From contig DASSSH010000026.1 of the NCBI GenBank assembly GCA_035708525.1, forward strand, positions 478 through 64,477: a stretch of 64,000 bases of DNA. Direction: 5' to 3'. A program made the position numbers and the translations under genes. The DNA is from Candidatus Methylomirabilota bacterium (GTDB taxonomy: Bacteria > Methylomirabilota > Methylomirabilia > Rokubacteriales > CSP1-6). The notes beneath the pieces were generated by a model that saw nothing but the letters and a program-made list of their open reading frames with translations, did no database searches and had not been told where the DNA came from. Positions 1-60,016 of this stretch are shown here, piece by piece (positions within the stretch are counted from its first letter, which is position 1; each line of letters opens with the position of its first letter).

Positions 1-252
1 CTTTACGAAAAAGGCCATACCTTGCTCTCGGTCTTCATGGTCCCGGCCTCGGCGGCCGGCACCGAGCTGACGGGCAAGCGCGTTCCGTATGGGGGTCGCG
101 AGTACATCACGGCGGAGCGCAAGGGCTACCGCACGGTGTCGTGGACCGATGGGCAGACGGTCTACGGACTGGTGTCTCTCCTCGACTACGATGCTCTGCT
201 CGAGTGTGCCGATCGGCTCCGCGCTGAACGCGCACGCGAAGCGCGGCTGTAG
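1..252 (+). CDS. anti-sigma factor, C-terminal fragment (5' end lies outside the window)
   Basis: Frame 1 is open from the window edge to TAG 250-252. The motif GYRTVSWTDGQTVYGLVSLLDYDALLECADRL resembles the C-terminal end of zf-HC2/ChrR-type anti-sigma factors. Confidence 0.5.
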   Translation, partial: LYEKGHTLLSVFMVPASAAGTELTGKRVPYGGREYITAERKGYRTVSWTDGQTVYGLVSLLDYDALLECADRLRAERAREARL

Positions 253-262
253 CAGTTGCCCG

Positions 263-1366
263 ATGGGGGCTCGGCTCGCGCGGCTCGGGCTCTTGGCGGT
301 GTTGGGCTGCCTGGCCGCCGTCGACAGCTCCCATGCCGGGGCCTTGCGGACCGACCTCAGCAAGGCCTTGGTCCCGTTGGACGAGATCGTCTCGGGCGGC
401 CCTCCCCCCGATGGCATTCCTGCGATCGATCGGCCGAGCTTCGTGACACTGGCCGCGGCCGATGCCTGGCTCAAGCCCAAGGAGCCGGTGGTGGCGCTTG
501 AGATCAGCGGCGACGCCCGGGCCTACCCCCTCCAGATTCTCATGTGGCACGAGATCGTCAACGACACGGTGGGCGGCAGGCCCGTCACCGTCACCTACTG
601 CCCGCTCTGCAACTCGGGGCTCGTCTTCGACCGCGTCGTGGGTGGCGTCACGCTCGACTTCGGCACCTCGGGCAAGCTCTACAAGAGCGATCTGGTCATG
701 TACGATCGGCAGAGTCATTCGCTCTGGGCCCAGATGGAGGGCCGGGCCATCGTCGGTGAGCGGGCGGGGACGCGTCTGGGCCTGATTCCCGCCAACACCG
801 TCGCCTACGAGGATTTCAAGGCGATCTATCCGGGTGGGAAGGTGTTGTCCCGGGAGACGGGCCACGCACGCTCCTACGGACGCAACCCCTATGAGGCCTA
901 CGACCGCCCCGATTCGTCCCCCTTCCTCCTGCAAGGCACGGCCGACCGGCGGCGCCCGCCCAAGGAGCGTGTGGTGGGGGTCCTCATGAGCGGGATGCCC
1001 CGGGCCTATCCGTGGTCGGTGCTCGAGAAGCAGGGCGTACTCCATGACACACTGGGCGGTGAGCCGCTGGTGATCTTCCATCGTCCAGGTGCGCTGTCCG
1101 CGCTGGATGATTCGCGCATGGAACAGTCCCGCGCGATCGGCGCTACGGCCGTGTTCAGCTCTGTGCTGGCTGGCAAGCTACTGACCTTCGAGCGGGTGGC
1201 CGATGGATTCCGCGACAAACAGACCAGCAGCCTCTGGAGCCTGCTGGGCTACGCGACCAAGGGTCCGCTGGCCGGCAAGCGGCTTAAACCGATCCAGCAC
1301 GTGGATGCGTTCTGGTTCGCCTGGGCCGCGTTCAACCCCGCGACCTCGGTCTACGTCACACCGTGA
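263..1366 (+). CDS. DUF3179 domain-containing secreted protein
   Basis: ATG 263 gives the signal peptide MGARLARLGLLAVLGCLAAVDSSHA. DUF3179 motifs are present: DGIPAIDRPSF, YPLQILMWHEIVNDTVGG, VTYCPLCNSG and SGKLYKSDLVMYDRQSHSLW. Confidence 0.85.
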   Translation: MGARLARLGLLAVLGCLAAVDSSHAGALRTDLSKALVPLDEIVSGGPPPDGIPAIDRPSFVTLAAADAWLKPKEPVVALEISGDARAYPLQILMWHEIVNDTVGGRPVTVTYCPLCNSGLVFDRVVGGVTLDFGTSGKLYKSDLVMYDRQSHSLWAQMEGRAIVGERAGTRLGLIPANTVAYEDFKAIYPGGKVLSRETGHARSYGRNPYEAYDRPDSSPFLLQGTADRRRPPKERVVGVLMSGMPRAYPWSVLEKQGVLHDTLGGEPLVIFHRPGALSALDDSRMEQSRAIGATAVFSSVLAGKLLTFERVADGFRDKQTSSLWSLLGYATKGPLAGKRLKPIQHVDAFWFAWAAFNPATSVYVTP

Positions 1367-1956
1367 CCGCCCTCGAGGAGCTCGCCGCCCTGCTCGCAGA
1401 GCTCGAGCGGGCGCGCACATCCATCATGGCCCTGGCGCGTGGCAACTGCGCGCAGGAGCCCTGGAGGCTCTATCCGGGCGAATACGGGATCTTCGACCGC
1501 AAGACGCATAGCCAGTTCTACTACCACTCGCACGAAGGTGCCCGGCACGAGGCCGGCCACTTTCACACTGTCCGCCTCTTCACCGATCGCTCGGTGCATC
1601 TGGTGGCCATCTCCATGGCCGAGACCGGCTGGCCGCAGGCGCTGTTCACCGTCAACGGTTGGGCCATCGGTGACGCCTGGGAACCACCGGAGACGCTCAA
1701 GCAATACATTCGCCGATTCCACATCGGGCCGGGCCGAGGGCCCGCGCCACTGGTCCGGTTCATCAACCTGATGTTTGAGGCCTTCACCCTCGAAATGGAG
1801 CAGCTTCAGGACGACAAGGAGCGTGTGCTGCGGGCTTACTGCGCCGCCCATCCGGGGAAGGATCCCCTCCAAGACTGGTCGCTGGAGATCCTGAGCCGGG
1901 TCGAGATCGACATGAAGGCCCGTCTCGCCGGGCCGGCAGAAGTGGTCAGGCCTTGA
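1363..1956 (+). CDS. hypothetical protein with a His-rich motif (YYHSHEGARHEAGHFH), possibly metal-binding
   Basis: The GTG start overlaps the upstream stop (GTGA at 1363-1366). Third-position GC is coding-like. The protein sits between the DUF3179 gene and the TlpA-like gene, with overlapping junctions on both sides. Confidence 0.65.
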   Translation: MTALEELAALLAELERARTSIMALARGNCAQEPWRLYPGEYGIFDRKTHSQFYYHSHEGARHEAGHFHTVRLFTDRSVHLVAISMAETGWPQALFTVNGWAIGDAWEPPETLKQYIRRFHIGPGRGPAPLVRFINLMFEAFTLEMEQLQDDKERVLRAYCAAHPGKDPLQDWSLEILSRVEIDMKARLAGPAEVVRP

Positions 1957-2516
1957 TCCGCGCACGGATCCTCGCCGTGCTCGTCGGGGTGGTCGCGCTC
2001 GGCGGGGTCTTGCAAGTGGCCGCCGTGGGCCCGGATCCGACGCTCGGGGCGGATCTCTGGCGGGTCGCAGGCATCGCGCGGGCCGGTCGCCAGGTCGCCG
2101 CGCCGTCGTTCCAGCTGCAGGATATCGCCGGGAACCGGGTCGAGCTGCGCCAGCTCCGCGGGCGAATCGTGCTGGTCTACTTCTGGGGCTCGTGGTGACC
2201 GCACTGCACGAGGGAGTTGCCCTCGGTGGATGGGCTGCACGAGAAGCTGGCGCGAGAAGGGCTCACCGTTCTCCTCGTGAACATCGGGGAGACCCGTGAG
2301 ACCGTGGTCCGGGCCCTGGCGTCGCGCCGCTACACAGCCCCCGTGTTCCTCGACTCGAACGGCAAGACCAGCGAGTCCTATCGCGTCGCAGGCACCCCCA
2401 CGGTGTTCATCATCGGTCGGGACGGGATGATCCTCGGGAGTGCCGTGGGCCCTGGCCCCTGGGCGGAACCGGCCGGGCGCGCGCTGCTCGAAGCGCTGCT
2501 CCGCGGTCGAACGTAA
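1953..2516 (+). CDS. TlpA/ResA-like thiol:disulfide oxidoreductase, selenocysteine-containing (UGA 2196-2198 read as Sec)
   Basis: ORFs 1953..2198 and 2217..2516 are in the same frame. The junction reads VLVYFWGSW-[TGA]-PHC-TRELPSV, the thioredoxin-fold WCxxC site. There is an N-terminal membrane anchor and a C-terminal AGTPTVFIIGRDG motif. The TTG start overlaps the upstream TGA (TTGA). Confidence 0.8.
2204..2229 (+). promoter_or_regulatory. putative bacterial SECIS hairpin for UGA 2196
   Basis: CGAGGG-AGUUG-CCCUCG at 2209-2225. It can be extended by 4 pairs with a bulged A at 2208. The loop A lies 19 nt from the U of UGA. Confidence 0.6.
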
Positions 2517-44552: not shown

Positions 44553-46073
44553 ATGCGCATCGGAGCGTTGCTCGCCCTGCTCCTCATCGCCGCCTCGACG
44601 GCCGAAGCCCAGCTGGTGCAGATCACCATCGCCCAGCCGGCGGAAGCCACCACCATGGACCCCGGACGCAGCACCCAGGTCCTCACGGTCAACTACTTCT
44701 ACAACCTCTACGACAGCCTGACCCGCTGGGACACGGCGCTGCACCTCCAGCCGGGCCTGGCGACCGCGTGGCGGGCCCTCAACGAGACGACCTGGGAGTT
44801 CACGCTCCGGCCCGGGGTGAAGTTCCACGACGGCTCCACGCTCTCGGCCGAGGACGTCAAGGCCACGCTCGAGCGCAACCTGCAGCCGGGCAAGACCGTG
44901 GTCACGGCTGGGTTCACGACGATCGAGGTGGTGCAGGTCGTGAGCCCGACGGTCGTCCGCATCGTGACCAAGAAGCCCGATCCGCTCCTGCCGGTGCGCA
45001 TGGCGCAGATGGGCTCTCAGATCCTGCCGGCCCGGCTCACCACCGACGATGGCGTCAAGGAGCTGGCGCGCCGTCCGGTCGGCACCGGGGCCTACCGCTT
45101 CGTCGAGTGGATCAAAGACGAGCGGCTCGTGATGGAGGCCAACCGGGACTGGTGGGGCTGGGACGGCCGTCCTCCGGCCATCGACCGCGTGATCTGGAAG
45201 GCGATTCCCGACGACTTCCCGCGGCTAGTGGCGCTCGACAAGGGTGAGGCGGACATCGTGACCAACGTGCCGCCCGACCGGATCAAGGCCATCGCCGAGG
45301 GCCGCGCGACACGTATCGTGAGCACGCCATCCACGCGGACGGTGACCTTCTGGATCAACACGACCCAGCCGCCGCTGTCGGATGCGCGCGTGCGCCAGGC
45401 CATGCACTACGCCATGGATGTGCCCGCGATCGTGCGGAGCCTCTATGCGGGATTGGGCAGGCCGTTCAGCGGTGGGCTCGCCGACACCGACTTCGGCTAC
45501 AATCCCGCGCTCAAGCCGTATCCCCACGATCCGGCGCGGGCCCGTCGCCTGCTGGGCGAGGCCGGCTACCCCCGCGGCATCGACGTCACGCTCTTCGCGG
45601 GCAGCGGCACCATGGTCAACGACAAGCACCTGCTCGAGGTGATCGGGGACATGTGGTCGAGGGTGGGCATCCGCGCCCGCATCGAGATGATGGAGATGGC
45701 CGCCCGCCAGCGCATGAACAACGACCGGACCGTGCCGCCGTCGGGACTGCTGCTGATCAACCCGCAGTCTACCCTGCTGGACGCGGACGGCAGCCTCTGG
45801 CGTCTCTTCCATCCCAGCGGCTTCGGCGGCAAGTACTGGGTGGGCAGCCAGCCGGGCCAGCGCTTCCACGAGCTGATGGAGACGGCGCGCTATTCACTCG
45901 ATCCCGGGAAGCGCAAGCAGCTCTACGCGGAGGCGACGCGGATCATCCACGAGGAGAAGCCGTGGCTCGAGCTGTTCCAGGAAGTGGTGGTCTACGGGAC
46001 GAGCCAGCGGGTCGTCTTCAAGCCGCGGGCCGACTACCGGCTGATCGTCGCGGAGATGACCGCCACCCGGTAG
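44553..46073 (+). CDS. ABC transporter substrate-binding protein, family 5 (peptide/nickel type)
   Basis: Signal peptide, then NLYDSLTRWD, KFHDGSTLSAEDV, and family-typical length. Confidence 0.9.
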   Translation: MRIGALLALLLIAASTAEAQLVQITIAQPAEATTMDPGRSTQVLTVNYFYNLYDSLTRWDTALHLQPGLATAWRALNETTWEFTLRPGVKFHDGSTLSAEDVKATLERNLQPGKTVVTAGFTTIEVVQVVSPTVVRIVTKKPDPLLPVRMAQMGSQILPARLTTDDGVKELARRPVGTGAYRFVEWIKDERLVMEANRDWWGWDGRPPAIDRVIWKAIPDDFPRLVALDKGEADIVTNVPPDRIKAIAEGRATRIVSTPSTRTVTFWINTTQPPLSDARVRQAMHYAMDVPAIVRSLYAGLGRPFSGGLADTDFGYNPALKPYPHDPARARRLLGEAGYPRGIDVTLFAGSGTMVNDKHLLEVIGDMWSRVGIRARIEMMEMAARQRMNNDRTVPPSGLLLINPQSTLLDADGSLWRLFHPSGFGGKYWVGSQPGQRFHELMETARYSLDPGKRKQLYAEATRIIHEEKPWLELFQEVVVYGTSQRVVFKPRADYRLIVAEMTATR

Positions 46074-46120
46074 ATCGCGGAACCGGGGCTCCGGCCCGGA
46101 GCGGGCGGAGCGGGCGCGTC

Positions 46121-46693
46121 CTACTGGTCGCGGCCCATCGTGTAGAACTCGCGGTTCGGCCGCATGGCCGCCAGATTCGCCATGCGGTTGGACAGGTTGA
46201 AGAAGGCCGCGACCGCGCCGATGTCCCAGATGTCCGACTCGCTGAACCCGTGCCGCCGGAGCGGCTCGAAATCAGCCTCCTCGATGCCGGCCGAGTCGAG
46301 CGTGACCTTCACCGCGAAATCCAGCATGGCCCGCTGGCGCGGCGTGAGGTCCGCGTGGCGGTAGTTTGCGGTGATCTGGTCGGCGATCAGGGGGTGCTTC
46401 GACAGGACACGGAGCGCCGCTCCGTGAGCGACCGTTCAGTAGGCGCAGGAATTGGCGGCGCTGACAGCGACCACGATCATCTCGCGCTCGGCACGCGACA
46501 GCCCCGACTCCCCCCGCATGAGGACCTCATAGTAGTGGAAGAAGGCGCGGAAATGATCGGGCTTCCACGCGTACGCGAGAAAGACATTGGGGGTGAAGCC
46601 GGATTTCTTGGCGATCGCCTCGATGGCCTGCTTGAGGTCGGCGGGCAGGTCGGCGGGGTCGGCCACGGGGAAGCGGCTGATCGGCTCGGTCAT
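46121..46693 (-). CDS. AhpD-like peroxidase-related enzyme, selenocysteine-containing (UGA at 46438-46436 read as Sec)
   Basis: ORFs 46436..46786 and 46121..46327 are in the same frame. The junction reads EREMIVVAVSAANSCAY-[TGA]-TVAHGAAL, the CxxCxxxH AhpD core motif with TGA at the second Cys. ATG 46693 overlaps the upstream stop (ATGA). Confidence 0.82.
46408..46426 (-). promoter_or_regulatory. putative bacterial SECIS hairpin for UGA 46438
   Basis: CACGGAGC-GGC-GCUCCGUG, an 8-bp stem (or 7 bp with pentaloop CGGCG), starting 9 nt after the UGA. Confidence 0.6.
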
Positions 46694-47778
46694 GGCTCGG
46701 GCATCCTTTCGTATCGCCCGTACTCGCGGGCGGCCTCCATGAACCACCGCACGCAGTCGGGATTGGCGCGGGGGGGCAGTTCGCACGAGGTGGAGAGCAC
46801 GTAGCGAGAGCGACGTCCGACCGTGCCGAGGCAGCGCCGGACCTCGGCCTCGATCTCGGCCTTGGTGGCGCGCTCGAAGATGGTCACGTCCACGTTGCCG
46901 ATGGCCACGACCCCGCGCTGGTTGCCCAGCGTGACGAGTCGATCCAGCTGGTCCACCTGGAGCGCCGGGTCAGCCTGCTGGTCCAGGTCGATGGTGATGG
47001 CCACGAAGCCGGCGTCCATGAGGTCCTCGTGGATCTGGTGCGTCGTGCCGCAGATGTGCACCGTGGTGCCGACCTTCTTCGCCTTGAAGTAGTTGACCAG
47101 CTCCGTGTGGTACGGCTTGATGAACTCGCGGTATGTGTCGGGCCCGACCAGCGAGCAGGAGGCGGTCGGGTCCGAGTAGCTGAGGCCGATGCGGGTCTCG
47201 AGGACGGCGTCGCCGACGCGCTTGGCGTACTCCGTGGCGAAGCGCATCAGGTCGTGGACGAACGCGGGATCGTCGATCGTGTCGAGGCACATCAGCTCCG
47301 GGTTCCGCATCAGCATGGCGATGGTCCAGGGACCGACGTTGACGGAGCCGAGGGCGCTCGGGAGCCCGGCCGCGGAGAGGGCGGCGCACTGCTCGAGGAA
47401 CGCCGGCAGCCGACCGTCGCGCTTGGGGTCGGGGATCTCGAGGGTCGCCAGCTTGCTTTTGTCCTCCTGCAGGATGTGCCGGTCGATGGACGGCACCACG
47501 TAGTCGGAGTACTTGACGCGGCAGCCGGTGGCTTCGGCCTCCTTGGCCAGGTCGTTGAAGGCGATCATGATGTCGGGCTGGTACCGGTCGTAGTAGTTGA
47601 GCATCGCCTTCGCGGCCTTGGTGGGATTGGTGCAGTACTCTTCGATCGACAGGCCGTCGAGGCAGCCGGCGAACACGCCGGCGATCGGGTAGGCGGGCAC
47701 GCGATCGGCGAAGCTGCCCTTGTAGGCGGCGACGACGCGCTCGCGCGGCGTGTAGTGGGTCTTCTGCTCCTGCGGCAT
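46690..47778 (-). CDS. uroporphyrinogen decarboxylase (URO-D) family protein, MtaA/CmuA-like methyltransferase type
   Basis: URO-D fold motifs (RVPAYPI, FNDLAKEAEATGC, HICGTT). Confidence 0.85.
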   Translation of the reverse strand: MPQEQKTHYTPRERVVAAYKGSFADRVPAYPIAGVFAGCLDGLSIEEYCTNPTKAAKAMLNYYDRYQPDIMIAFNDLAKEAEATGCRVKYSDYVVPSIDRHILQEDKSKLATLEIPDPKRDGRLPAFLEQCAALSAAGLPSALGSVNVGPWTIAMLMRNPELMCLDTIDDPAFVHDLMRFATEYAKRVGDAVLETRIGLSYSDPTASCSLVGPDTYREFIKPYHTELVNYFKAKKVGTTVHICGTTHQIHEDLMDAGFVAITIDLDQQADPALQVDQLDRLVTLGNQRGVVAIGNVDVTIFERATKAEIEAEVRRCLGTVGRRSRYVLSTSCELPPRANPDCVRWFMEAAREYGRYERMPEP

Positions 47779-47973
47779 GTCGCGTCCTTCCCTGTGGGCG
47801 AGTGGCCGGTCTTGCAGAGACGCTGCGACACAGCATTATGGCCCGACGCCGCGCTGGCCGGGAAGGTGCAAATGCACTAGTGCCGGGCCAACTCACGTCG
47901 CCAGGCGCGAAGAGGCGGCGGGAGGAAGACGCTTCTGGGCCGGGCCGCTCAGCGAGCGACCCGGCCCGTGACG

Positions 47974-49860
47974 TTACCGGACGGGCGTTGCGGCTGCCTC
48001 CTCGACGCCCAGCTCGGCCAGCTTGGTCGCCGTGGGCCGCCCGGTCTCGGGGTCCCAGCCGGCCATCTCGTAGTAGGTCCGGCGCGCCGCGAGGAACTCC
48101 GCGGGGTCGATCCGCTGCCCCTGGAGCGCGCCGTTGCCGATTCCCTCGTGCAGCCGCTGGGGCAGGAGATCGTCGGCGGGCGTGAAGCCCTCACGGCAGT
48201 TGAACAGCCGCGCGAGCGTGTTGTTCCGCTCACCCACCTTCATGAGCTCGTACAGGCTCATGTTCCAGCCCGTGACCGCGTTGATGTAGGCGACCATCGG
48301 CTCGAGCTCGAGCCCGTTGAGCGGAGTGCCGACGAAGTCGCACATGCCGACCGAGTTGTAGGCGCTCCAGACCTTCTGGGTTTCGAAGAAGGCCCGGACC
48401 TTCTTGGCGTCGAGCACCAGCGGGTCGAGGGGCTCGATAAGGCCCAGCGCCCCCAGCGGGTGCCCCTGCGGGTGGAAGCCCGCGTAGAGCGGGTCGTGAG
48501 GCGCCTCCATGTGATCGGCGCCCGTGGGCGACAGCGCGTAGGCCAGGGAGAGGCCCTTCTTGCCCCGCGGGTCGTGCATGGGCAGCTCCTGCCCCTTGAC
48601 GTGCAGCGCGAAGCGCTCGGCGCCCTTGCCGAGCTTGGCGGCGGCGCGCTTGACACCCTCGCCCAGCAGCTCGCCGATGCCCTCGCGCGTGCCGATGCGA
48701 TGGACCATCTGCACGACCGCCTCGGCGTTGCCCCATGTGAGGTCGATGCCACCGGTCATCTCCTTGGTGATGATGCCGTGCTCGTAGCACTCCATGGCGA
48801 AGGCGATGACGGCACCGGTCGAGATCGAGTCCAGCACGTACTGGGCGTAGAGCTGGTTGATCAGCGCAAGGGCGTTCAGGTCGCTGACGCCGCAGAGCGA
48901 GCCCGATGCCGCCAGCGTCTCGTACTCGGGCCCGCCGTACTTCGGGGTCACGCCCAGCTCCTTGACCTCCACCTCGCGCTTGCACGCCACGGCGCAGGCG
49001 TAGCACGTGCCGCGGTTGACGAGGATGGTGTCGCGCATCGTCTGGCCGCTGATCGCGCGGGCGCCCTCGAAGGAGCCGTCCCGGAAGTTGCGCGTCGGCA
49101 GGATCCCGCTAGCGTCGAGCGCCAGCACGGCGCTGGAGGAGCCGAGCTGGTGGAAGCGGTCCTTGGCCCGGTCGTAGTGCTCGCGGAACCAGACCAGCTG
49201 GCCCTTGGCCCGCTCCTTGTCCATGGCCACGGGCGGCTTCGTGCCGCGCACGACGACGGCCTTGAGGCGCTTCGCGCCCATCACGGCGCCGAGCCCGCCC
49301 CGTCCGTGGAAATGCTTGAGCTGGTTCACGATGGCCGCGAACCGCACGCCGCGCTCCCCGGCGACGCCCGTCTGCAGCACGCGGACGCGCTTGTCGCCTA
49401 GCTCCTGCTCGATCCCGTCCTGCACCTCACCGGAGAGCTGGCCCCAGTAGGCGGTGGCGTCGCGGAACTCGACCTTGTCGTCCTTGATCCAGAGGTAGAC
49501 GGGGGTCTTCGACGCCCCGCGGATGACGAGCCCGTCCCAGCCGGCCGCCCGCAACTCCGGGCCCCACCAGCCGCCCGCTTCCGACTCGCCGTAGCCGCCG
49601 GTGAGCGGGGACTTCGCGGCCGCCGTGTACCGGTTGGTGCCCGACAGCGACAACCCGTTGATGATGCTGGTCGTGAAGACCAGCACGTTGTCCGGACCCA
49701 GAGGATCCACGCCGGCCGGCATGTCGCGCAGCAGGATCCACGCGGCCAGCGCCCCGCCGCCCAGATACTTCCGCGTCACCGTCTCGGGGACTTCCTCCGT
49801 GCGGGTCTGACGCGTGGTCAGGTCGACGTGCAGGAGCTTCGCCGTGATGCCGGATGCCAT
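47974..49860 (-). CDS. aldehyde:ferredoxin oxidoreductase family (tungstopterin enzyme)
   Basis: The N-terminus LLHVDLTTRQTRTEEVPE...YLGGGALAAWIL, TGGYGESEAGGWWG and 628-aa length are typical of AOR. Confidence 0.9.
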   Translation of the reverse strand: MASGITAKLLHVDLTTRQTRTEEVPETVTRKYLGGGALAAWILLRDMPAGVDPLGPDNVLVFTTSIINGLSLSGTNRYTAAAKSPLTGGYGESEAGGWWGPELRAAGWDGLVIRGASKTPVYLWIKDDKVEFRDATAYWGQLSGEVQDGIEQELGDKRVRVLQTGVAGERGVRFAAIVNQLKHFHGRGGLGAVMGAKRLKAVVVRGTKPPVAMDKERAKGQLVWFREHYDRAKDRFHQLGSSSAVLALDASGILPTRNFRDGSFEGARAISGQTMRDTILVNRGTCYACAVACKREVEVKELGVTPKYGGPEYETLAASGSLCGVSDLNALALINQLYAQYVLDSISTGAVIAFAMECYEHGIITKEMTGGIDLTWGNAEAVVQMVHRIGTREGIGELLGEGVKRAAAKLGKGAERFALHVKGQELPMHDPRGKKGLSLAYALSPTGADHMEAPHDPLYAGFHPQGHPLGALGLIEPLDPLVLDAKKVRAFFETQKVWSAYNSVGMCDFVGTPLNGLELEPMVAYINAVTGWNMSLYELMKVGERNNTLARLFNCREGFTPADDLLPQRLHEGIGNGALQGQRIDPAEFLAARRTYYEMAGWDPETGRPTATKLAELGVEEAAATPVR

Positions 49861-49878
49861 CGTGATGATCTCCTTTCG

Positions 49879-51306
49879 CTACGTCCGTGGCGTGCGAGGC
49901 GTCCGCCGCGCGACCCCGGTCCGCACCGCCGCCTCGGCGACGGCGCCGGAAACCGCGGGCACGACCCGGGAGTCGAACATCGACGGCGTGATGTACTCCT
50001 CGCTCAACTCGCTGTCCGATACGATGCTGGCCAGGGCGTGGGCCGCCGCCAGCTTCATGTCGTCGTTGACCCGGCGCGCGCGGACGTCGAGCAGGCCGCG
50101 GAAGAACCCCGGGAAGCAGCAAGAGTTGTTGATCTGGTTCGGGTAGTCCGAGCGGCCGGTGGCCATGACCCGCACGTAAGGCCCCGCCTCCTCGGGCATG
50201 ATCTCCGGCGTCGGGTTGGCCATGGCGAACACGATCGGGTCGCGGTTCATGGCCTGGATGTCCTTCAGCGACACGACGCCGGGGCCACTCAGGCCGACAA
50301 AGACATCGGCGCCCTTGAGCGCGTCGCCGGCCGAGCCCCGCAGCCGCTCGGGGTTGGTGTGCTCCGCGAACCACTGCTTCATGGAGTTCATGTTGTCGGT
50401 CCGGCCCGCGTAGATGGCGCCGGCCCGGTCGCACCCGATGATGTGGCGGGCCACTTCCAGCATCAGCAGCTTGGCGGTCGCGATGCCCGAGGCACCAGCC
50501 CCCGTGAACACGATCTTCGCGTCGCCCAGCTTCTTGCCCACGACCTTGAGCGCGTTGAGCAGCGCGGCGAGGACCACCACGGCCGTGCCGTGCTGGTCGT
50601 CGTGGAAGACGGGAATGTCGAGGTCCTTCTGGAGACGCTCCTCGATCTCGAAGCAGCGAGGCGCGGAGATGTCCTCGAGGTTGATGCCGCCGAACACCGG
50701 GGCGATGGCTTTGACCGTGGCGACGATCTCGTCGACGTTCTTCGTGTTGAGGCAGATCGGGAACGCGTCCACCCCCGCGAAGTCCTTGAAGATGAGGGCC
50801 TTGCCTTCCATGACCGGCTGGGCACCGTTGGGCCCGATGTCGCCCAGGCCCAGCACGGCGGTGCCGTCCGAGACGACGGCGACCGTGTTCTGCTTGATGG
50901 TCAGCGTGTAGGCCTTTTCGGGATCGTGGTGGATGGCCATGCAGACGCGCGCCACGCCGGGCGTGTAGGCCATGCTGAGATCGTCGCGAGTCTTGACCGG
51001 CACCCGGCCCCGAACCTCGATCTTGCCGCCCAGGTGCATGAGGAAGGTGCGATCCGAGACGTTGACGACCGTGACACCCTCCAGCGTCCGCAGGTGGGCA
51101 GTGATCCGCTCACCGTGCTTCTCATCGCTCGACTTGAAGGTGATGTCACGAATGACGACGTCGCGGCCGGCCTCGACGATGTCGATGGCGCCGATGTCCC
51201 CGCCCTCGTCCCCGATCGCGGAGGTGACTTTTCCCAGCATTCCGGGCTTGTTGGCGATGCGGACCCTGACGGTGAGGCTGTAGCTGGCGACTGGGGCATT
51301 GGTCAT
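49879..51306 (-). CDS. NAD(P)-dependent malic enzyme with an N-terminal ACT domain
   Basis: LSMAYTPGVARVC, VVSDGTAVLGLGDIG, FTGAGASGIA, FAMANPTPEI. Confidence 0.9.
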   Translation of the reverse strand: MTNAPVASYSLTVRVRIANKPGMLGKVTSAIGDEGGDIGAIDIVEAGRDVVIRDITFKSSDEKHGERITAHLRTLEGVTVVNVSDRTFLMHLGGKIEVRGRVPVKTRDDLSMAYTPGVARVCMAIHHDPEKAYTLTIKQNTVAVVSDGTAVLGLGDIGPNGAQPVMEGKALIFKDFAGVDAFPICLNTKNVDEIVATVKAIAPVFGGINLEDISAPRCFEIEERLQKDLDIPVFHDDQHGTAVVVLAALLNALKVVGKKLGDAKIVFTGAGASGIATAKLLMLEVARHIIGCDRAGAIYAGRTDNMNSMKQWFAEHTNPERLRGSAGDALKGADVFVGLSGPGVVSLKDIQAMNRDPIVFAMANPTPEIMPEEAGPYVRVMATGRSDYPNQINNSCCFPGFFRGLLDVRARRVNDDMKLAAAHALASIVSDSELSEEYITPSMFDSRVVPAVSGAVAEAAVRTGVARRTPRTPRT

Positions 51307-51470
51307 TGGGGACCTCCTGTGCTCGGGCTGAATGGCCGGGCGCGCGTTAGGGCTTGAGGATAGAGAGTTGGCACCGCAAACGCAAGAGCCGGATGCCTTA
51401 CTTCCCTAGGCCCCCTTTTCCCCCGTCCGCCGTCCCGGTTGCGCGGCGCATCACGAGGGGACGGCGCCCC

Positions 51471-51635
51471 TCAGGCCGACCGCCGCCGGCGCGAGCCCTT
51501 TCCCTGCTTCACGTGCTTGAAGAACTCGATCTGCCGGAGCCGGCGCTCGGCCTCGGCGCGCGTGTCGTAGGACCCGAAGCTGCGCCCGGTCTTCTCCGAG
51601 AGAACCACGTACTTCCCGCCGCGCTTTCTGATCAT
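51471..51635 (-). CDS. small basic hypothetical protein (54 aa)
   Basis: [40 protein letters not shown]. The ATG overlaps the msrA stop (ATGA at 51632-51635). Confidence 0.45.
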
Positions 51636-52279
51636 GTCGTCACACCCGTCGGGCAGCGGAGGCCGGTGCCGCCGATGCCGCAATAGCCCCAGGGGTTCTT
51701 GGCCAGGTACTGCTGGTGGTAATCCTCGGCGTAGTGGAACTCCGGCGCCTCCCTGATCTCGGTGGTAATGGCGCCGAAGCCGCCATCGCTCAGCACGCGC
51801 TGGAAGGCGCGCCGCGAAGCCTCGGCGGCCTGGCGCTGGGCGTCGCCGTAGCAATAGATGGCCGAGCGGTATTGGGTGCCGGTGTCGTTGCCCTGGCGCA
51901 TGCCCTGGGTCGGGTCGTGGCTTTCCCAGAACACGCGCAGCAGGTCCTCGTAGGCGACCTTGTCCGGATCGAAGACGACCCGGACGCCCTCGGCGTGGCC
52001 CGTGAGGCCGCTGCACACTTCCTCGTAGGTGGGATTGGGCGTGAGTCCGCCCGCATATCCCACCGCGGTCGAGTAGACGCCGGGCAGCTCCCAGAATTTC
52101 CGCTCCGCTCCCCAGAAACAGCCCATCCCGAACAAGGCCAGCGCCGTTCCCTCAGGGAAGGGTGGCTCGAGGCGGGCGCCGCTCACGAAATGAGCGGCCG
52201 GGACCCGAACGCGCTCGGCCCGTCCGGGGAGCGCGTCGGCCGGCGAGGGGAGCGCGGCCTTCTTCGAGCGGAGCCACAT
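51632..52279 (-). CDS. msrA: peptide-methionine (S)-S-oxide reductase
   Basis: SPADALPGR...GMGCFWGAE...[23 protein letters not shown] chose the start [20 protein letters not shown] by analogy with E. coli [19 protein letters not shown]. Confidence 0.9.
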
Positions 52280-52328
52280 GGGGGGCACCTCCACCGGCGA
52301 GTATACCAGGCCCATCGAGCCGCGTGGG

Positions 52329-52769
52329 CTAAGTGCCCTGGCTCAGCCCCGCGACGACGGTCGCATTGGGGAGGCGGGTGAAGACGGCCGGGGCGATCTT
52401 GATCTTCGCCGAGCGGCTGCCGCCGCCCAGGATGACCCACTCGAGCCCCATGAGCGTGTCATCGACGTAGATCGGCAGCCCGTCGGGCAGCGCGAACACC
52501 GTCACGCCGCCGATCATCATCCCGGTCAAGGCCCGCGTGTCCTCGGCGTCAGCGAACGACAGGCGGGAGACGCCCATCAAGCGTCGCACGGTGTGGTTCA
52601 CATCCAGGCGCCGGTCGGCCCGGACCACGCAGGCCGCGAACTGCCGCGGCTCCTTCTTGGAGGCCACGATGATCGTGTTGGCGCTCTGCTGGAGCGTGAA
52701 GCCGTAGCGCTCGCAGAAGGCGGCCGTGTCTGCATACTGGGGATCGATCCGAACCAGCTCGTAGGGCAC
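52329..52769 (-). CDS. YbaK/EbsC-type aminoacyl-tRNA editing domain protein (N-terminus uncertain)
   Basis: [38 protein letters not shown]. The in-frame upstream codons (TVARALDALG) look like genuine N-terminus, but there is no ATG, GTG or TTG. Confidence 0.7.
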
Positions 52770-52869
52770 GCCGAGCGCGTCGAGGGCGCGCGCGACGGTC
52801 TGCTCGATGGCGTCGGTGGTGATGGCCGGATTCCTCCCGGTGCCAGTATAGCCGGTGGCGTCCGGCGCT

Positions 52870-52898
52870 TGACAAGCCGGGCGCAGGCACCGAGACTA
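52870..52898 (+). promoter_or_regulatory. candidate sigma70-type promoter for mscL
   Basis: A perfect TTGACA, a 17-nt spacer, then GAGACT (a weak -10), 37 nt upstream of ATG 52936. Confidence 0.3.
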
Positions 52899-52935
52899 CG
52901 GTCCGCCCGCCGGGACGCGAGCGAGGAGGGACGCC

Positions 52936-59452: not shown

Positions 59453-60016
59453 ATGCCCATCACACGGATGCTGGAGCTCGACGAGCTGGAGCCGGCCCTG
59501 CGCGAGGCGGCGGAGAAGTGGGGCGCCCAGGGCGGCAACGTGAACATGCACCGGGTATTCGGCCAGATGCCCGACTTCTTCAAGAAGTTCGTCGAGTTCT
59601 ACGGGCCGCTGGTCAACCACGGGCGCGTCCCCGTGCGCGTCAAGGAGCTGGCGCGCATCCGTGTGGCCAACCTCAACGAGTGCCACTACTGACAGAAGAC
59701 CCGCTACGCCTTGGCAAGGCGGGTGACGAGGGAAGCCGAGCTCGAGCGGGTGGACGACTTCGAGGCCGCTGAGTTCAGCCCGGCGGAGAAGGCCGTGCTG
59801 CGCTTCACCGAGGCTTTCTACCGCGACCACAAGACGGTTCCCGATTCGGTGTGGAGCGACTTGCGCCGGCACTACAGCGAGCCCGAGATCATCGAGCTCG
59901 CCTGGACGATCGCGGCCTACATCATGCTGGGCAAGCTGATCTACGCCTTCCGCATTCCGTACGGTGACGAGGGCAGCGGGCCCCGAGGCGGAGCCATCCC
60001 GGAGGAACGCCCATGA
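59453..60016 (+). CDS. carboxymuconolactone decarboxylase/AhpD-like family selenoprotein (UGA 59690-59692 read as Sec)
   Basis: ORFs 59453..59692 and 59711..60016 are in the same frame. The junction reads VKELARIRVANLNECHY-[TGA]-QKTRYAL, i.e. CxxC with TGA at the second Cys. The downstream FSPAEKAVLRFTEAF...EIIELAWTIA is CMD-like. The stop overlaps the next gene's start (ATGA). Confidence 0.78.
59707..59721 (+). promoter_or_regulatory. putative bacterial SECIS hairpin for UGA 59690
   Basis: CGCCUU-GGC-AAGGCG, starting 14 nt after the UGA. An alternative outer pairing is CCCGC/GCGGG (59700-59723). Confidence 0.5.

Follow-up and report, generated by a model that had tools for sequence, protein, structure and literature searches.

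Selenocysteine (Sec)-containing AhpD-like proteins, in which Sec takes the second Cys position of a CxxC motif (CxxU), were among the new selenoprotein families described from the Sargasso Sea metagenome, where 27 sequences represented the family and Fig. 3 presents a predicted selenocysteine insertion sequence (SECIS) (PMC1088965). In the Global Ocean Sampling (GOS) data, AhpD-like 1 was represented by 299 sequences and was among the most abundant selenoprotein families, while the 70 sequences of AhpD-like 2 (pfam02627) were more frequent in non-marine samples (PMC2398784). A 2026 review lists the family as 'AhpD-like protein, TIGR01926, CxxU' (PMC13188914), and the AhpD-like family is also the browsing example of BSepDB (PMC13326102). 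Here we describe a gene at positions 46693..46121 (minus strand) of a 64,000 nt stretch of DNA from a Candidatus Methylomirabilota bacterium (contig DASSSH010000026.1, the whole stretch being referred to as the window). Judged from its sequence, this gene very probably encodes a 190-residue thiol/selenol oxidoreductase of the TIGR01926 family, with UGA codon 86 decoded as Sec via a bacterial SECIS. It adds one more member, apparently not annotated so far, to a known selenoprotein family, and its lineage is already known to be Sec-rich. Descriptions of this family, including the CxxU motif and the SECIS, date from 2005–2008, and the finding will not surprise a specialist and opens no new question.

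Gene structure and protein family

The coding sequence of the AhpD-like gene covers positions 46121..46693 on the minus strand and consists of 190 codons, including that for the predicted Sec86, with a TAG stop codon at 46123..46121. Translation of 46693..46121 gave a single internal stop (...VVAVSAANSCAY, stop, TVAHGAALRVL...), and the fused product reads MTEPISRF...VVAVSAANSCAY, stop, TVAHGAALRVLSKHPLIADQITANYRHADLTPRQRAMLDFAVK...MGRDQ, stop. The internal stop is the TGA at 46438..46436, which is codon 86 and stands where the CxxC motif has its second Cys (C-A-Y-U). A mechanical list of open reading frames (ORFs) divides the locus into two minus-strand ORFs, 46436..46786 and 46121..46327, and an earlier note on this DNA had proposed that these share a frame, that the TGA stands at the second Cys of the AhpD-core motif, and that the intervening 36 codons are open and typical of the family. 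Both the ORF list and the translation bore this out, as the two ORFs lie in one frame, and the 36 codons from the TGA to the downstream ATG are all open and fall within the TIGR01926 profile match described below. Past the UGA, the frame runs for 104 more codons. The ATG start codon (46693..46691) overlaps the TGA stop codon of the upstream gene (46692..46690) in the sequence ATGA.

For the profile matches, a Cys was put in place of the internal stop. The earlier note had suggested a profile hidden Markov model (HMM) search with the 190 aa fused protein, and this returned TIGR01926 (NCBIfam 'peroxidase-related enzyme') with 213.7 bits versus a curated cutoff of 81.8, and Pfam CMD (PF02627) with 60.5 bits versus 23. 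The TIGR01926 alignment spans the junction, with residues 6–181 placed on profile positions 1–177 of 178, and on these matches the gene encodes an AhpD-fold protein of the TIGR01926 family. It does not belong to AhpD sensu stricto, for which the model (TIGR00777) gave 23.3 bits versus a cutoff of 191.95, and no ahpC or peroxiredoxin gene was found among the annotated genes of the window. The best structural template was PDB entry 2PRR from Ralstonia eutropha (247 bits over residues 3–188), entitled 'alkylhydroperoxidase AhpD core: uncharacterized peroxidase-related protein', with 2PFX, 3C1L, 2OYO and 6K40 as further structural relatives, the last of which carries the title 'Alkyl hydroperoxide reductase AhpD'.

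Thousands of homologues were recovered when 5.8 billion proteins were searched. The top 120 were full length and had 65–81% identity to the window protein. When 19 close homologues from these 120 were aligned, the UGA column was Cys in all 19, and residues E71, C83, Y85 and H90 were invariant. These residues form part of the active-site helix-hairpin motif E71-x11-C83-A-Y85-U86-x3-H90 (46424..46483, minus strand), which corresponds to the AhpD proton-relay set with Sec for the second Cys; the spacing Glu-x11-Cys-x-x-Cys-x3-His is right in the window protein, U86 standing for Cys. In Mycobacterium tuberculosis AhpD, nucleophilic attack is made by the second Cys (Cys133), and Sec at this position would therefore make mechanistic sense. 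The proton relay consists of Glu118, Cys130, His132, Cys133 and His137 in M. tuberculosis AhpD, and of Glu36, Cys48, Tyr50, Cys51 and His55 in Pseudomonas aeruginosa PA0269, which has the tetrapeptide C-A-Y-C and reduces H2O2 weakly, whereas 2PRR is without an established substrate (PMC3141380).

Orthologues with TGA and with Cys codons

One genome per GTDB species was scanned with a degenerate DNA pattern (N-x-C-x-Y-TGA-x-V-x-H-G-A-x-L-R), for which we estimated from its information content that ~0.07 matches would be expected by chance. The pattern matched 81 genome contigs, and in 81/81 the frame was open beyond the TGA and CMD/AhpD-like, extending for ~100 codons except at two loci that were truncated by their ends. 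Thirteen of the matches were close orthologues of the window gene (group A, ISRFPVPD...C-x-Y-U-TVAHGAALR), mostly from Candidatus Rokubacteria/Methylomirabilota metagenome-assembled genomes (MAGs). The remaining 68 loci belonged to a less closely related clade within the family (group B, C-H-Y-U-IVHHGAGLR...ADGLGVELE), with hosts in the Gemmatimonadota, SAR324, Chloroflexota, Planctomycetota and others, and a SAR324 representative of group B scored 146 bits on TIGR01926. A second scan, of metagenome contigs and with TGA, TGC or TGT allowed at the codon, gave at least 120 loci; among the 120 matches listed 63 had the TGA form, and the frame was open in all.

Pooling of the group A loci resulted in 77 TGA and 60 TGC loci among the matches listed, with 49 and 44 different 78-nt segments, respectively, so that both Sec-type and Cys-type orthologues, which the earlier note had named as a point to check, are present (at least 49 distinct TGA versus at least 44 distinct TGC forms). 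The group A TGA forms (hereafter also Sec forms) come mostly from Rokubacteria/Methylomirabilota MAGs and from soil and groundwater metagenomes, and are 75–92% identical to the window protein at the amino acid level. The closest relative among the matches listed (L173, on the 150-kb soil or groundwater metagenome contig WNGF01000091.1) shares 172 of the 190 residues, and the genes around it show 90–95% identity to those in the window. In 12 Sec orthologues, the dN/dS ratio was 0.12–0.40 after the UGA (102 codons), versus 0.10–0.43 before it (80 codons), and purifying selection acts alike on both sides of the UGA. A neighbour-joining tree of 101 distinct sequences placed the Sec forms in one large and one small clade, with several Cys forms (L082, L083/84, L116, L195 and L191) nested among them, and parsimony on this tree requires ~7 switches between Sec and Cys.

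The codon usage immediately past the UGA also differed between the two forms. The Thr codon at position +1 (46435..46433) was ACG in 47 of the 49 distinct Sec forms, versus 20 of the 44 Cys forms, with ACC in the other 24. This preference for ACG after UGA may arise from the influence of codon context on UGA decoding, or may reflect a contact in the lower stem of the hairpin.

A conserved hairpin downstream of the UGA

The earlier note had placed an 8-bp hairpin with a GGC loop beginning 9 nt past the UGA and had suggested a SECIS prediction for this region. We located the hairpin at 46426..46408 (minus strand), where the 5′ arm CACGGAGC (46426..46419), the loop GGC (46418..46416) and the 3′ arm GCUCCGUG (46415..46408) fall within the codons for H90-G-A-A-L-R-V96. 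The bacterial SECIS consensus has an apical loop of 3–9 nt on an upper stem of 4–16 bp (Fig. 2A of PMC13188914), a loop with G at the first two positions, often followed by G or U, a distance of 16–37 nt between UGA and loop, and a minimum free energy (MFE) of −7.5 kcal/mol or lower (PMC13188914). With its GGC loop, 8-bp stem, 17-nt spacing and MFE of −13.7 kcal/mol, the hairpin agrees with this consensus in all four respects, and it was conserved only in the TGA forms.

This conservation was observed at the nucleotide level. The codons CAC GGA GCG GCG CTC CGT (H-G-A-A-L-R) were unchanged in 49/49 distinct TGA forms, in all of which the 18-nt core CACGGAGCGGCGCTCCGT was also invariant, and the codons flanking the hairpin varied in the same sequences (GTG/GTC/GTA, GCT/GCC/GCG, GTC/ATC and CTG/CTC). 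In the 44 distinct TGC forms, GGA was used in only two and CGT in only one, with mostly GGC or GGG for Gly and CGC, CGG or AGR for Arg; the 7-pair stem was complete in 0/44 of these, and most had 4 or 5 pairs. The full stem was thus present in 49 and absent from 0 of the TGA forms, versus present in 0 of the 44 TGC forms (Fisher p = 1.4e-27, with relatedness ignored), and the mean local MFE was −12.4 kcal/mol for TGA forms versus −5.4 kcal/mol for TGC forms. The synonymous entropy at codons +4 to +9 was 0 in 53 Sec forms, as compared to a gene mean of 0.59 bits, which makes this the lowest six-codon entropy window of the gene in the Sec forms, whereas it was 0.19–1.5 bits at the same codons in the Cys forms.

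The Cys forms nested among Sec forms show how the hairpin changes with the codon. Those inspected (L082 and L083/84) had changes exactly at the synonymous positions of the hairpin (GGA to GGC or GGG, and CGT to CGC), with the sequence CAC GGC GCG GCG CTC CGC in L082 and CAC GGG GCG GCT CTC CGC in L083. Since the inspected nested Cys forms altered wobble positions of the hairpin, the association of hairpin and TGA recurs over independent transitions. In group B, a homologous stem is present at the same codons (ACGGRG / CUCCGU), with the loop CGGGN. When the 79 distinct Sec-form sequences of both groups were taken together, the 6-bp core was paired in 97.7% of cells, which fell to 27–46% when the 3′ partners were slid by 1–3 columns, and the only changes in the stem were wobble-compatible, from A-U to G-U in 23 sequences and from G-C to G-U in 10.

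The 18-nt core was also encountered outside the close orthologues. The 131-kb metagenome contig FWWM01000482.1 (L092, match at 1251..1294, minus strand) encodes C-E-Y-U-T-V-A-H-G-A-A-L-R-Q-V in a much more divergent protein, with 60 residues identical to the window protein, and has the identical hairpin core after its TGA. The protein may belong to a further subfamily with Sec, or the motif may have been transferred.

Genomic context

The AhpD-like gene is the last of four minus-strand genes arranged head to tail, preceded by a malic-enzyme homologue (49879..51306), an aldehyde:ferredoxin oxidoreductase (AOR, 47974..49860) and a URO-D-fold, MtaA/CmuA-like methyltransferase (46690..47778), while a convergent gene for a peptide/nickel-type substrate-binding protein ends at 46073. 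The methyltransferase matched Pfam URO-D with 197 bits, and TIGR01463 with 115.8 bits, below the cutoff of 235.4; its H-x-C...C pattern presumably resembles the zinc site of MtaA. The URO-D-fold gene is probably in the same operon as the selenoprotein gene, but is not part of the recoding device. A promoter scan of 45900..52900 showed no promoter-like site, and a terminator scan of the same region gave one terminator-like site, located inside the malic-enzyme gene, which is fewer than expected by chance.

A URO-D-like gene was found upstream on the same strand in 16 of the 36 Sec-form loci with enough upstream DNA (including L135, L148, L173, L048, L075, L133, L152, L196, L144, L103, L157 and L007), versus 0 of 42 Cys-form loci, and it was directly abutting in three Sec-form loci, including L135 and L148. 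The AOR gene was also present upstream in L135, L148, L173 and L043. As other Sec-form loci (L113, L190 and L043) have different, unrelated neighbours, the URO-D-like linkage is characteristic of a subclade and, taken alone, is no indication of function, and shared ancestry explains it as well as function does. A function based on the URO-D and AOR neighbours was consequently not adopted, with the synteny being confined to the subclade. There is a small chance that in the subclade of the window the Sec form would serve the translationally coupled MtaA/CmuA-like methyltransferase as its dedicated selenol redox partner, or as a thiol/selenol acceptor, rather than taking part in general peroxide defence.

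Predicted use of Sec in the window and the lineage

A six-frame scan of the window for TGA codons with a GC3 above 0.8 and at least 35 open codons on either side gave just three sites, at 46438 (minus strand), 2196 (plus strand) and 59690 (plus strand), each of which is aligned to an active-site Cys. The second site (TGA 2196..2198) lies in a candidate selenoprotein with a TlpA/ResA-like thioredoxin fold (1953..2516, plus strand, start codon uncertain) and the motif FWGSW-U-PHC (UxxC), which aligns across the TGA to FWGTWCPHC of Bacillus subtilis ResA and is accompanied by a 6-bp hairpin (CGAGGG-AGUUG-CCCUCG, −14.0 kcal/mol), the loop of which lies 16 nt past the UGA. The third (TGA 59690..59692) is in a candidate selenoprotein encoded by a second, distant CMD/AhpD-family gene (59453..60016, plus strand), with the motif NECHY-U-QKT (CxxU). 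Its best NCBIfam match was the 'YciW-related (seleno)protein' NF053654, below cutoff, and it aligns to NGCAYC of PDB entry 2IJC, a 145-residue hypothetical protein which matches over the same residues as PA0269. The hairpin past its UGA had an energy of −14.2 kcal/mol (z = −2.2) and a possible GGC apical loop. By our own reading of the sequence, both additional candidates have G-containing loops ~17–21 nt past the UGA, although for the second CMD gene the minimum-energy structure from RNAfold draws a different, longer stem than the loop we read.

The closest relatives of the window gene are from Rokubacteria/Methylomirabilota MAGs. For one MAG from the Methylomirabilota, 63 selenoprotein genes are reported as predicted (PMC13188914), and Sec-type group 4 hydrogenases were reported from Methylomirabilota (PMC13582414). 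Two further window genes belong to families with Sec forms, and neither copy has an in-frame TGA. One encodes a DUF3179 protein (89..1366, plus strand, 364 bits) located just 5′ of the TlpA-like candidate, DUF3179 being a family with Sec forms (PMC13188914). The other encodes MsrA (51632..52315, minus strand; TIGR00401, 223 bits), and lies ~5 kb upstream of the AhpD-like gene on the same strand, beside a YbaK-like deacylase gene.

Discussion

A TGA at this position could have arisen from a Cys codon (TGC or TGT) by mutation or misreading, in which case the gene would be dead or truncated at residue 85. The change from TGC to TGA takes a single base, and Cys occupies the UGA column in every one of the nearest full-length proteins in the databases. 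The TGA is however found in 49 distinct orthologues from independent assemblies rather than in one clonal sequence, the downstream frame is open in all TGA orthologues and evolves at the low dN/dS ratios given above, and the hairpin codons are frozen solely in the TGA forms, which makes a pseudogene or a sequencing error very improbable. It is extremely improbable that the locus encodes two small proteins, namely an 85-residue N-terminal product and a 68-residue product starting from the ATG at 46327. The mechanical ORF caller does split the locus into these two ORFs, but the 36 codons between them are conserved, under purifying selection and within the family profile match, and neither fragment would hold the complete AhpD fold, with the active-site H90 located in the gap.

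Read-through of the UGA could also take place without selenium, by insertion of Cys (through Cys-tRNA(Sec) or mis-acylation) or by a near-cognate tRNA, with the hairpin acting as a generic stimulator of read-through in a cell that has no working Sec pathway or in which selenium is scarce. The Cys orthologues indicate that a Cys product would be functional, and Sec machinery was not seen in the window, neither in the tRNA scan nor among the ~47 annotated ORFs. Nevertheless, the hairpin, whose GG loop lies 17 nt from the UGA, conforms to the SECIS consensus of the SelB type, the same device is common to the Sec forms of the family in many phyla, the window has two more redox genes with a UGA aligned to Cys, and Methylomirabilota are reported to be Sec-rich; we therefore regard selenium-free read-through as distinctly improbable. 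The in-frame TGA itself, and nothing further, would be accounted for by a genome-wide reassignment of UGA to sense (genetic codes 4 or 25). This is vanishingly unlikely, since TGA is the commonest stop codon in the window and ends 23 of the 37 well-supported genes, including the gene directly upstream, and just three in-frame TGA codons had a coding signal on both sides, each at an active-site Cys.

Decoding of UGA codon 86 as Sec via the hairpin is the explanation we prefer, and a number of results weigh against it. The stability of the hairpin is unremarkable in comparison with shuffled sequences, as for the 36-nt segment z was −1.13 and 32 of 200 shuffles folded as well, and for a 66-nt segment z was +0.28, in a sequence of 68% G+C. 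Because the shuffle comparison was not significant, we dropped the folding energy as evidence in favour of the comparative data. A scan of the entire window with Rfam at gathering thresholds gave zero matches. There were no double compensatory changes in the 79 Sec-form hairpins, which gives no classical covariation support, and the stem is partly imposed by the conserved H-G-A-x-L-R peptide; the lack of double changes is expected, as the stem also encodes this invariant peptide. A covariation shuffle control was uninformative, the partner columns being nearly invariant. The tRNA/tmRNA scan detected no tRNA, and hence no tRNA-Sec, in the 64-kb window or in 28 related loci, and selA, selB and selD were absent among the ~47 Pfam/NCBIfam-annotated ORFs of the window. 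Finally, with regard to function, the nearest proteins of solved structure come from structural genomics and are uncharacterised.

We propose that the hairpin (8-bp stem, GGC loop, 17 nt 3′ of the UGA) serves as a bacterial SECIS. SelB-GTP with Sec-tRNA(Sec) would bind the apical GGC loop, and Sec would be delivered once the UGA is in the A site, with the SelB pathway taken from the established bacterial mechanism (PMC13188914). The ribosome would then melt the hairpin and translate up to the TAG at 46121. By homology to AhpD and PA0269, Sec86 and Cys83 of the product may cycle between selenol/thiol and selenenylsulfide within the Glu71/Cys83/Tyr85/Sec86/His90 relay, and may thereby reduce peroxide or an oxidised peroxiredoxin-type partner.

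The finding is of value for annotation, since standard gene callers break this gene into fragments of 85 and 68 residues. As at least two other genes in the window are split likewise, redox genes of the Sec-rich Rokubacteria/Methylomirabilota are systematically mis-annotated. The paired orthologues (49 distinct Sec versus 44 distinct Cys forms, with ~7 switches) moreover constitute a clean natural experiment, in which the synonymous codons of the predicted SECIS stay fixed as long as the codon is UGA and are altered where UGC has taken its place.

Comparison with known systems

The window gene belongs to the same HMM family as the known AhpD-like CxxU proteins (COG2128/TIGR01926), with the predicted Sec likewise in place of the second CxxC Cys and a homologous SECIS stem at the same codons. 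It differs from the marine-type AhpD-like selenoproteins in being part of a distinct soil/groundwater clade (group A), which has the motif C-x-Y-U-T-V-A-H-G-A-A-L-R, lies nearer to the consensus of TIGR01926 and occurs mainly in Rokubacteria/Methylomirabilota. The stem is 7–8 bp with a GGC triloop in group A, as compared to 6 bp with a CGGGN loop in other members. The motif C-x-Y-C-x-V-A-H-G is shared with 2PRR, but 2PRR and its relatives are Cys proteins. The relay residues of M. tuberculosis AhpD (Rv2429) and PA0269 (Glu, Cys, His or Tyr, Cys, His) match E71, C83, Y85, U86 and H90 of the window protein, with C-A-Y-C in PA0269 corresponding to C-A-Y-U; however, the window protein is no orthologue of AhpD, and differs in topology and length from both M. 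tuberculosis AhpD and PA0269.

The E. coli fdhF SECIS has a bulged U. The hairpin in the window resembles bacterial SECIS elements of the fdhF type and the Zhang and Gladyshev consensus in being a stem-loop within the coding sequence directly 3′ of the UGA, with a small loop starting with GG and a spacing of 17 nt, and differs from other bacterial SECIS elements in its very short triloop and perfect stem.

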